Shown: positions 28 to 31,110 of the stretch, piece by piece
Layout of the letters: each line of letters opens with the position of its first letter
How positions within the stretch are numbered: position 1 is the stretch's first letter
IMG/VR virus record: IMGVR_UViG_3300037583_000020
Coordinates: 1-32,313 of that record
DNA: 32,313 nucleotides
From: a virus
Taxonomy: Duplodnaviria; Caudoviricetes
Strand: one strand, 5' to 3'
Made by a program: the position numbers and the translations under genes
The notes under the pieces: generated by a model
What the model saw: only the letters and a program-made list of their open reading frames with translations
Database searches by the model: none
Told to the model about the DNA's origin: nothing

Positions 28-114
28 GCCGAAGTGGTGGAATTGGTAGACACGCTAGCTTGAGGGGCTAGTGAGCACATTTCGCTCGTAGGGGTTCGAG
101 TCCCCTCTTCGGCA
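28..114 (+). tRNA. tRNA-Leu(GAG)
   Basis: Acceptor stem GCCGAAG/CTTCGGC, D region TGGTGGAATTGGTAGACAC, anticodon stem CTAGC/GCTAG around loop TTGAGGG (GAG at 62-64), long variable arm, T arm AGGGG-TTCGAGT-CCCCT, discriminator A114. CCA is not encoded and a T-run follows. Confidence 0.96.
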
Positions 115-208
115 CTCTTTTTTTATACTTTATTCCCCCGTAACCGACTGAAAACAAAATGGTTATAGAAACAATTAGAAACATTAAGACAAAACAAAAA
201 ACAAAAAA

Positions 209-2594: not shown

Positions 2595-2646
2595 GATGGG
2601 GGGTCCCATAGGGATCCCGGGACTCCCGGGCCATCGACCGGTCGAT
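2595..2646. repeat. GC-rich palindrome cluster (candidate packaging or end site)
   Basis: GGGTCCC-ATA-GGGATCC, CCCGGGA-C-TCCCGGG (2616-2630) and the perfect palindrome ATCGACCGGTCGAT (2633-2646). The first two are enclosed by GATGG/CCATC. Confidence 0.5.
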
Positions 2647-2731
2647 ATACTTATTACACGAGAAAACACACAACTTCCCTATTTTTCTCTTCCATAAGAG
2701 ATTCCTTCTGCCGAAATATTACTATCTAGCA

Positions 2732-2760
2732 TTGACAAAAAGCCATTGATGTTTTAGCAT
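2732..2760 (+). promoter_or_regulatory. Rightward sigma70-type promoter P1
   Basis: TTGACA (2732-2737), 17 nt, TAGCAT (2755-2760). Confidence 0.65.
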
Positions 2761-2766
2761 AATATC

Positions 2767-2858
2767 AGCCTCGTAAGGCCTACGGGGAAGGCGAGGCCGA
2801 CCTCCTCGTATATCCCCCCTTAAAACCTCCTTTCACATAGGCCTCGCCTTTGGGTTTT
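2767..2858 (+). ncRNA. Candidate small RNA with anti-Shine-Dalgarno loop
   Basis: Starts at the expected P1 start site. A 7-bp hairpin (2769-2787) is followed by an 11-bp stem AAGGCGAGGCC/GGCCTCGCCTT enclosing a 41-nt C/U-rich loop, then a U-rich tail. Confidence 0.5.
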
Positions 2859-29049: not shown

Positions 29050-29457
29050 TTGAAAAAGGTTTTGGTGGGAATAGCCATTGTTATTGTGCTTTTACCGGCC
29101 CACCTTAACCTTAATTCACAGATTCAAATATATATTTCAGAAGGTAATATTTACAAGTCGGTTTTCAAAGAACCGTTTGAGTCAGTTTACATCCAGCTTT
29201 GGAATGGTGATTTTTTCGTAATCACCAATCGGATAGAGCACCGCATTTTGGTTCCCGTTGAATATTTAAGAAGCAAGTTAGCCAAGAAGGGAAGCACAAT
29301 TAAAGACATAATTTTGATTATTCACAACCATTATGCGAAACCATATTTTTCTTATTCAGATCGGCTGATGTATAAAAAGCTGAAGAGAGAGGGTTTTAAC
29401 GGGTTATTTATGGTTTACATCCAGGCGACTGGAAACGTGATTAAATATAATCAGTAG
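29050..29457 (+). CDS. JAB/MPN-like (RadC-type motif) protein with N-terminal signal peptide
   Basis: ESVYI upstream Glu and IIHNH-x6-S-x2-D. N-terminus MKKVLVGIAIVIVLLPA. TTG start with GAGGAG RBS. Confidence 0.65.
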   Translation: MKKVLVGIAIVIVLLPAHLNLNSQIQIYISEGNIYKSVFKEPFESVYIQLWNGDFFVITNRIEHRILVPVEYLRSKLAKKGSTIKDIILIIHNHYAKPYFSYSDRLMYKKLKREGFNGLFMVYIQATGNVIKYNQ

Positions 29458-30064: not shown

Positions 30065-30282
30065 TTTTCCTCAGCCCACTTTAATTCAGCGAGAAAGTCT
30101 TCAATGGGATATAGAGGACAAAAAGAAGGTGGTGACATATTCTCTTTAAGATCTCCCAGGTATTGCTTTAGCACTGAGCAGTAGAGATATACCTTTACTT
30201 TTTTTGTTTTATCAGACTCGTAGAAAGTGGTTACACTAGATCCCGGGCATTCGTTGCAGTTTCGAATAACTCTTTCACTCAT
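30061..30282 (-). CDS. Small zinc-binding-like protein
   Basis: NCNECP...LYC...PSFCPL, a pattern common in phage hypothetical proteins. Confidence 0.7.
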   Translation of the reverse strand: MSERVIRNCNECPGSSVTTFYESDKTKKVKVYLYCSVLKQYLGDLKENMSPPSFCPLYPIEDFLAELKWAEEK

Positions 30283-30703
30283 CTGTCTTTTCTTCCTCCT
30301 CTAATACAGAAAGTTTTTTAAAGGCTTCTGATGTTAAAGGAACATAAAGAACCTTTTCCTTGTAACTCCAAACAGCTCTGAAACGTTTAGACTCTTTGTT
30401 TTTGAGGAACCCCAACGTGACAATCAAGCCAGTGGTTTTTAAAAACCCCCTTACTGTTAGAGATGCATTTCTATTCTTATTAACAAAAACCCTATATGTA
30501 TTTTCTGTTTCAACCGGAGATGGTTTTATTGCTATTATCTTTAGCTTGGGATTATAGAACAGCATTACATTTCTCTGGCGTGAAAGATTCATTTTTTCTA
30601 CCACGTGTCTATTGAACGTAAGCAAGACAGGAGATATTGTTACCATATTAAATTTGACCCTTTTTCCCTTTCCTGGTTTTATCAACTCAAACCCCGATTG
30701 CAT
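30275..30703 (-). CDS. Basic beta-rich hypothetical protein (possible DNA-binding)
   Basis: RBS AGGGGG, 142 aa, VTIS...FN...VMLFYN...IAIKP pattern. Confidence 0.75.
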   Translation of the reverse strand: MQSGFELIKPGKGKRVKFNMVTISPVLLTFNRHVVEKMNLSRQRNVMLFYNPKLKIIAIKPSPVETENTYRVFVNKNRNASLTVRGFLKTTGLIVTLGFLKNKESKRFRAVWSYKEKVLYVPLTSEAFKKLSVLEEEEKTDE

Positions 30704-30732
30704 TGTTCCCCCTAATTTTTAGATCTTTATGA

Positions 30733-30871
30733 AGGGCACCCGGCAGGATTGGTTACCTGCAAGGGGGTAGCGGTTTTTGTCGATATAACCCCCAGCCGGG
30801 GACCAAAATACACGTCCCCCGCACCTTACGGGGAAACCGCCAGAACCCCGTTGTTCAGTCACGGATGCCCT
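30733..30871 (-). ncRNA. tRNA-like structured RNA candidate
   Basis: Nested stems on the minus strand: closing AGGGCAUCCG/CGGGUGCCCU, T-arm-like GCAGG-UAACCAAU-CCUGC, long central helix GGGG..UGGCGGUUU/AAACCGCUA-CCCC and apical GGGGAC/GUCCCC. Confidence 0.6.
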
Positions 30872-31110
30872 CTTTTTACCTTAAGCGGAGGTTTTTCTTC
30901 AAACCTGGGACATTCCCACACTGGAGTTACCACGTTTAGTAAAACGTCCATTGCATAATTCAGGTTAGCAATTGAACAATTCTTCACCCCATCTTCGGGG
31001 TGAAATTTCGCACAACGGAAACATAGACAATATTCCCTATGTTTGCCTTTTAAATCTTCATCTACATAAACCATCCTTCCATGATGTTTATATCGAATTA
31101 TTTTACCCAT
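30859..31110 (-). CDS. Small Cys-rich protein (83 aa)
   Basis: CLCFRC...NC...WECP pattern. GGAGGG RBS. Confidence 0.7.
   Translation of the reverse strand: MGKIIRYKHHGRMVYVDEDLKGKHREYCLCFRCAKFHPEDGVKNCSIANLNYAMDVLLNVVTPVWECPRFEEKPPLKVKRGHP

Follow-up and report, generated by a model that had tools for sequence, protein, structure and literature searches.

The window, a 32,313-nt stretch of viral DNA, carries on its minus strand a structured RNA of 141 nt (30732..30872, closing stem to closing stem, as delimited by an Rfam match and mapped stems). The RNA is real, and it is a stripped-down relative of the manA RNAs, not an uncatalogued kind. In our preferred reading, it is predicted to have a class II tRNA-like body locked by one loop-loop helix of 8-9 bp. 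It would be a stable non-decoding RNA that outlasts the operon transcript, with copies joined through this helix, a picture for which we see an even balance of belief and doubt.

The single match that Rfam returned on the stretch is the manA RNA (RF01745), at 30733-30888 on the minus strand, covering model positions 1-192 with 44.3 bits and an E value of 2e-8. Since the gathering score of the family is 55.2 bits, the RNA fails formal membership. Both conserved core words flank P3, and P2, P3, P4, P8 and P9 stand in family order and spacing; the stem spacing equals that of a canonical member (L001 compared with L300). The L3-L8 pairing is also present, with 8-9 bp. Three family features are missing. 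P1, the 5' hairpin, has 2 of its 6 model pairs non-standard and amounts to -2.3 kcal/mol; a 10-nt loop stands where the P5-P7 multiloop with its L5-L7 pseudoknot (published SS_cons_1) should be; and the L8-L9 pairing (published SS_cons_2) is absent. Below the cut-off and without these three features, the window RNA is the most reduced manA variant among the members compared. The sequence-only reading had taken it for an undescribed non-coding RNA, and the outcome which that reading had set against itself, a strong hit to a known family, is found here in a weakened form, full-length and sub-threshold. ARAGORN and Rfam detect no tRNA and no tmRNA on the stretch, which rules out a tRNA or tmRNA gene; here the expectation of no canonical hit was borne out with ARAGORN, and with Rfam for tRNA and tmRNA, the exception being RF01745.

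We number the helices as in a cryo-EM preprint (10.64898/2026.07.01.735769), and deduce the assignment from the Rfam consensus, in which L5 is complementary to L7 and L8 to L9, and L6 is of the GNRA type. All features lie on the minus strand. The two strands of P2 (30862..30872 and 30732..30742) form 11 bp including a terminal G-U, 30872-30862 with 30742-30732, at a pair probability of 0.97. Here the closing stem of the sequence-only reading reappears with its inner 7 bp as quoted. P2 is followed within the molecule by P3 (30829..30850, loop L3 30834-30845), which lies between the halves of the core word, and then by P4 (30798..30819), whose plain 10-nt loop replaces the multiloop. P8 (30763..30793, loop L8 30769-30787) contains one mismatch at its base. 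P9 (30743..30760) is a hairpin of 5 bp with an 8-nt loop, stacked on the 3' strand of P2 at a pair probability of 0.98, and corresponds to the T-arm-like hairpin already recognized from the letters (30760-30743). P1 (30873..30888) is a weak remnant or absent, and lies inside the upstream ORF.

The folding stability of the RNA exceeds that of shuffled sequences (z -3.13, 1 of 200 as stable), and it is the most stable of the 920 windows of 141 nt within the whole stretch. Because the plus strand folds too (z -2.53), folding alone leaves the strand undecided; the Rfam match and the gene direction decide for the minus strand. The earlier minus-strand assignment stands, on these two grounds and not on folding alone.

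The nested minimum-energy fold is a long helix, which lies 8-11 kcal/mol below the family fold when the latter is counted without its loop-loop helix. As the loop-loop helix is worth approximately -10.6 kcal/mol, the two folds are close and may compete. The long helix is an isomer, nested in topology, that arises when P3 and P8 exchange strands about the L3-L8 helix, and it is possible because the two stems here carry interchangeable G and C runs. Swapped pairing of P3 and P8 with at least 4 bp on both sides occurs in 1 of 19 lineages, the window itself, with P8 called by a script and seemingly miscalled in a few. The modeled family fold is P3, P4 and P8 around a junction, together with the loop-loop helix. 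The interrupted helix of about 85 nt proposed from the sequence is therefore a folding-program isomer of these three stems, and the 12-nt unpaired linker in place of a D arm belongs to the nested fold; in the family fold it is the 5' half of the D arm.

L3 (30834..30841) pairs with the 3' side of L8 (30769..30776) in a helix of 8 bp and -10.6 kcal/mol, matched by 274 of 20,000 shuffles; it reaches 9 bp if the top pair of P8 is sacrificed. This helix is the longest among the 19 lineages. We assessed covariation by partner-swap permutation tests in place of a covariance model or an R-scape-type count, MAFFT having misaligned the window sequence. For L3 and L8 across the 19 lineages, own partners score 11.2 and swapped partners 8.1, a difference that none of 200,000 permutations reaches. 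The own partner is best or tied in 12 of the 19, and two control regions are flat. The pairing was first spotted by eye in several relatives and tested afterwards, and the lineages are uncorrected for kinship. Because our searches gave no close homologue of the window copy, its covariation is borrowed from distant relatives. The homologue check proposed with the sequence-only reading thus comes out positive for L3-L8 over 19 lineages by the swap test, and empty for close homologues.

On the other hand, the L9-L8 pairing is a family trait (p 0.001 in 17 lineages, L015 and L044 being excluded for an uncertain P9 register) that the window RNA lacks: its own score is 3, against a swapped mean of 7.3, and a 4-bp option exists only by giving up the top of P8. 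According to the accessible text of the cryo-EM preprint, manA RNAs assemble into pentamers, decamers and a 60-subunit cage, and in manA_pho34 the L3-L8' pairing is intermolecular (10.64898/2026.07.01.735769). Of the loop-loop contacts in these cages, the window RNA keeps only L3-L8; both interfaces of the 60-mer are absent. By analogy with pho34, L3-L8 may form between molecules of the window RNA and would then give small rings or chains, not the 60-mer cage; we hold this to be about as likely as not.

To collect relatives, we ran pattern scans of viral, genome and metagenome collections, with a script requiring both core words, the 3' hairpin and the closing stem. The matches listed include at least 111 distinct sequences; four with a weak P3 (L124, L009, L127 and L033) were judged chance and dropped, leaving 107 of manA type. 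Among the matches listed, the window RNA is the shortest of the 107, with a span of 129, followed by 148, and canonical members span 164-177. The 19 lineages consist of the window, 15 from the list and 3 further Rfam matches, and L300 and L285 represent approximately 90 near-identical canonical members in the swap tests. Sixteen of the 19 match RF01745, 6 above the cut-off and 10 below, which indicates that the Rfam cut-off misses part of the family; L014, L054 and L091 give no RF01745 match at E 0.05. Sequences whose core words are joined to another kind of 3' part (the L028/L063-type group, L036, L041, L059, L105 and L107) were left unused.

By DNA, 60 relatives hold no close homologue of the window copy; the searches as a whole gave only identical copies of this prophage. 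Among 300 other genomes of the class, two carry the core pattern, and by eye neither shows the family stems; a loose pattern gives 28 matches against 25 in a reversed control in five genomes sharing a neighbor gene. An RF01745 search of 96 genomes yields no match, but it misses the window's own copy as well, so that its negative outcome carries no weight. Comparison with phages by blastn finds chance matches only, and scans with the portal and the 142-aa protein find only this prophage. Two DNA runs contain the RNA stretch unchanged and may be its source.

The scans also brought up neighboring types of RNA. L091, L054/L081, L094 and L102 are enlarged manA-type RNAs, 215-330 nt in length, whose P4 region contains long inserts, and the closing stem of L091 is 15 bp. 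L028, L042, L045, L063, L065, L115 and approximately 20 similar loci encode RNAs of about 180 nt with both manA core words and a 6-bp closing stem. Their 3' hairpin is of another kind, and they often directly adjoin a tRNA; among those scanned, only L115 matches manA (29.8 bits). L520:228-330 (+), at 103 nt, is smaller still than the window RNA. Its closing stem has 12 bp, its 5' core word comes without P3, and besides two small hairpins it has the same hairpin at the T position. A ribosome-binding site and a start codon lie directly behind it, and Rfam gives no match. It has the look of an intermediate between tRNA and manA. Situated among the tRNA genes of large phages are L432, L442, L447, L462, L480 and L517 (about 120-140 nt to the pattern match), in which the 5' core word is closed directly by its partner and the T-position hairpin follows immediately; three such loci scanned give no Rfam match. 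L510, L538 and L456 have tRNA-like ends, an 8-nt T loop and long inserts, and in the L510-type scan TCG or TCA are the three variable loop letters in 57 of 119 loci.

Reduction could mean decay. The window RNA might be a monomeric or decaying manA remnant that has lost its assembly modules and either folds on itself, with L3-L8 inside one molecule, or no longer works, an account that we judge improbable. A weak P1, the loss of P5-P7 and of L8-L9 complementarity, the mismatch at the base of P8 and the competing fold all suit it, and no second lineage of the exact window layout appears among the matches listed in any scan. Decay would not produce an RNA in which all core positions are intact, P4 is cleanly closed, P2 is lengthened and L3-L8 is the longest of 19, and these features speak against it. 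Seed members without P5 and P7 exist as well.

We then placed the RNA in a tRNA register set by stem positions. P2 takes the place of the acceptor stem, the core words that of the D arm, P3 that of an insertion in the D loop at the G18-G19 site, P4 that of the anticodon stem, P8 that of the long variable arm, and P9 that of the T arm. The 5' half of the core word (30851..30861) is predicted to hold U8, G9, D stem 10-12, G13, A14 and A15, and the 3' half (30822..30828) U20, A21, A22, D stem 23-25 and G26. In this register, U8, G9, the 3-bp D stem, G13-A22, A14, A15, A21 and G26 fall in place, followed by U48 (30761, preceding P9), G53, U54, A58 and Y60. The letters of the class II tertiary core, including R15-Y48, are thus all found. 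The list of invariant tRNA letters is established knowledge, and we checked it against 122 tRNAs. The elbow is missing: P3 is inserted in place of G18 and G19, and A55, A56 and C57 stand where U55, C56 and R57 are expected. A 10-nt loop replaces the 7-nt anticodon loop, and an 11-bp stem the 7-bp acceptor with its free N73-CCA.

Against a class II profile (25 long-arm tRNAs, 20 positions including the misses at 55-57), the window RNA scores 6.8 bits, reached in 22 of 200,000 random draws; real long-arm tRNAs average 25 bits in-sample. The class I profile gives -6.0 bits. With the class II profile, positive scores are obtained for 16 of the 19 lineages. The constancy of positions 8-15, 20-26, 53 and 54 is not evidence, because the search filters fixed them. 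Among the filter-independent positions, U48 is kept in 107 of 107 sequences, and A58 and Y60 in 106 of 107 each, counts that include approximately 90 near-identical canonical members; across the 19 lineages they are kept in 18, 17 and 17. The 3-bp D stem forms unprompted once P3, P4, P8 and P9 are enforced. In approximately 89 rows of the manA alignment that accompanies PMC2864571 (supplementary file 5), its pair 12-23, read by eye, appears as U-G, U-A, C-G, A-U and G-C, and some rows break it. The published manA structure, in the part of the source available, marks only two D-stem pairs (PMC2864571).

Direct sequence tests of tRNA kinship give modest to weak support. The core words share 11 of 15 letters with the D arm of tRNA-Ser (two Ser tRNAs compared), a 15-letter match of this kind is reached by 122 of 3,000 shuffles, and the best single match is an Asp and not a Ser tRNA. 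A profile search with tRNA-Ser finds nothing significant, and ARAGORN at its normal threshold calls no tRNA even in copies with P3 deleted. Taking structure and letters together, we consider it somewhat more likely than not that the manA core is a class II (Ser-like) tRNA body. Shared ancestry and convergence both fit this likeness. We regard it as possible, a little short of an even chance, that the ancestor of manA, and in permuted order of the ROOL core, was a class II (Ser-like) tRNA in which the D, anticodon and T loops and the variable arm became kissing-loop modules.

The RNA keeps the letters that hold a tRNA body together and has lost the ones that the ribosome, synthetases, RNase P, EF-Tu or SmpB would recognize. 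This pattern suggests a scaffold for loop-loop modules and not a mimic. A true mimic, acting as a decoy for anticodon nucleases or SmpB or as an RNase P/Z processing signal, was the function suggested by the sequence-only reading, and we now find it distinctly improbable. The tRNA-like core positions and topology speak for a mimic, as do the T-position loop of 8 nt, the shortest among the lineages compared and shared with L102, the plain loop at the anticodon position, and the relatives that lie flush with tRNA genes. Its difficulty is that G18-G19, U55-C56, CCA and G3-U70 are absent and that a 10-nt loop occupies the anticodon site. P2 varies from 4 to 15 bp among measurable lineages, so there is no 7+5-bp ruler; the anticodon loop, elbow, CCA end and 7-bp acceptor are surfaces that the family does not keep, which is what weakens the decoy and processing roles. 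ARAGORN and Rfam are negative for tRNA and tmRNA, and the host has its own tmRNA. The tRNA-likeness first noted from the letters thus holds at the level of the scaffold, in the mapping of the core to a class II body, and lapses at the elbow, anticodon and CCA end; the absence of a UUC T loop, CCA and G3-U70 was seen correctly.

The window is most of a prophage. Its left attachment repeat (38 bp, 89..126, plus strand) lies at the 3' end of a tRNA-Leu (28-115), and the prophage extends beyond the window to a second copy approximately 42.4 kb away on the same contig, which an integrase and a Cro/C1-type repressor adjoin. The plus strand of the window carries the head, tail, terminase and portal genes, and the minus strand the manA-type RNA, within a long leftward early operon. 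The ribosomal protein L31 of the host belongs to a 90%-identity cluster in which 2 of the 15 members listed are Ca. Aminicenantes/Aminicenantales and the others carry no taxon. Elsewhere in the window, 29050-29457 (+) encodes a protein of 135 aa that has a hydrophobic stretch near its N terminus, a motif containing HNH, and no Pfam family. Of 300 other genomes of the class, 7 have it, and it is 32% identical to the product of L013:772-1233, a gene 260 nt upstream of the L013 manA-type RNA. GC-rich hairpins and repeats occur at 2600-2830 (+), in the gap ahead of the late genes.

The RNA lies between two phage ORFs on its own strand. The upstream ORF (83 aa, 30859..31110, function unassigned) reaches with its last codons into the 5' strand of P2, and its stop codon (30859-30861) supplies the first three letters of the core word. 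The downstream ORF (142 aa, 30275..30703) starts 28 nt past the RNA, behind a ribosome-binding site at 30708-30713; no Pfam or PHROG family was found for it, and its look-alikes are unnamed phage proteins. Downstream of two homologues of the 83-aa ORF (55-60% identity), the RNA is missing. The window, L008 and L013 make up a mid-operon type with a long P2 (11, 8 and 9 bp), a gene 23-28 nt downstream and no clear P1 by eye.

This arrangement raises the main rival to a stable RNA, namely a cis-acting mRNA element, in which the folded domain would bring the end of the 83-aa gene close to the ribosome-binding site of the 142-aa gene and so couple the two in translation, or would stabilize the downstream message. 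We regard it as unlikely. In its favor, the upstream stop lies inside the RNA with the next start close behind, 7 of the 19 lineages have a gene with a ribosome-binding site 19-40 nt downstream, and the accessible part of the original description files manA as cis-regulatory (PMC2864571). Folding with the family stems enforced predicts a paired binding site on naked mRNA (5 of 6 letters below 0.1 unpaired), a more open one (0.32-0.91) when the upstream region is covered, and renewed pairing with a ribosome at the stop. Unconstrained folding, in contrast, leaves the site paired in both states, and the models cannot represent the loop-loop helix. By eye, neither L008 nor L013 has in its 5' flank an evident strand that would sequester the site.

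The wider family bears on the same question. Three of the 19 lineages abut tRNA genes, L300 and L285 begin directly after a consensus promoter, and L363 and L332 end at a terminator-like hairpin. The genes downstream have nothing in common by eye, and where a member lies in a tRNA array or ahead of a terminator there is nothing for it to control. Contexts as mixed as these suit an RNA made for its own sake more than they suit a ligand switch.

For the stable RNA that we prefer, transcription upon induction from an early promoter approximately 10 kb upstream, with the RNA left over after ordinary mRNA decay, is a step that we lean slightly towards accepting; survival would follow from its paired ends. 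A 10/12 promoter match lies beside the repressor at that distance, such matches being overall at chance level. Further points count against the preferred reading. A promoter and terminator scan found neither flanking the RNA, with counts at chance level, its sole terminator-like call (30835-30815) falling within the RNA and overlapping P3/P4; and a ribosome halting at 30859-30861 must open P2. As to its use to the phage, an abundant structured RNA could soak up host RNA-binding or RNA-sensing proteins in lytic growth, a suggestion that we consider rather doubtful.

Reduction as such is not new, since seed members without P5 and P7 are already present in the 2010 alignment (PMC2864571), as far as that source was available; its extent here is new among the rows compared. 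The occurrence of manA beside tRNAs is likewise in print (PMC10832533, in the part consulted). A term search of the main text of the cryo-EM preprint (10.64898/2026.07.01.735769) finds no mention of tRNA. We found no statement of a tRNA-like manA/ROOL core or of a minimal manA in the accessible parts of the literature searched, which included PMC9964418, PMC11109978, PMC12990946, PMC12968392 and 10.1101/2020.02.04.933952, the subscription papers on ROOL/GOLLD structures lying outside this scope. If the tRNA mapping is true, it accounts for the conserved letters of the family, for its occurrence in tRNA arrays and for the resemblance to ROOL. If descent is also true, RNA-only cages are built on a tRNA body, and the window RNA, with a single interface kept, is nearest to the bare scaffold. 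As a natural manA with all reported interfaces but one dropped, it offers a ready minimal construct with which to ask which of the contacts drives assembly, and if assembly is of any consequence.

Compared with manA (RF01745; Weinberg et al. 2010, PMC2864571, as far as available), the window RNA shares both core words, the order and spacing of P2, P3, P4, P8 and P9, the L3-L8 pairing and a phage location. It differs in its P2 of 11 bp instead of 5, the loss of the L5-L7, L6 and L8-L9 contacts, the 10-nt loop for P5-P7, the weak P1 and the score below cut-off. Its setting is mid-operon in a temperate phage, with a host placed by L31 near Ca. Aminicenantes, and not in a marine cyanophage or gamma-proteobacterium.

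With class II tRNAs (tRNA-Ser/Tyr/Leu; RF00005) it is predicted to share the arm order, the 2-nt and 1-nt linkers, a 5-bp T stem stacked on the closing stem, and the tertiary core (3-bp D stem with G13-A22, U8, A14, A21, R15-Y48, G53, U54, A58 and Y60). Unlike them, it has a hairpin in the D loop without G18-G19, an 8-nt T loop without U55-C56, an 11-bp closing stem, and neither an anticodon loop nor CCA.

The tRNA-like domain of tmRNA (RF00023), to which the topology had at first been assigned, resembles the window RNA in its closing stem with a stacked T-arm-like hairpin and in having no anticodon. tmRNA has no D stem, whereas an equivalent is predicted here, and the window RNA lacks G3-U70, CCA, the UUC loop, the tag frame and the tmRNA pseudoknots, so that this assignment is not supported.

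Just upstream of ROOL, we notice tmRNA-like genes of about 80 nt with the tRNA-like domain only (L012:782-862 and L007:2095-2176). ROOL itself (RF03087; PMC12286853, in the portion consulted) differs from the window RNA in its length of about 600 nt and in a permuted order, with the hairpin upstream of the core word. All four ROOL loci matched (L006, L007, L012 and L019) carry the same 5' core word, together with a 5-bp hairpin whose 8-nt loop has the same frame, a U before it, and behind it a strand whose pairing partner adjoins the core word.
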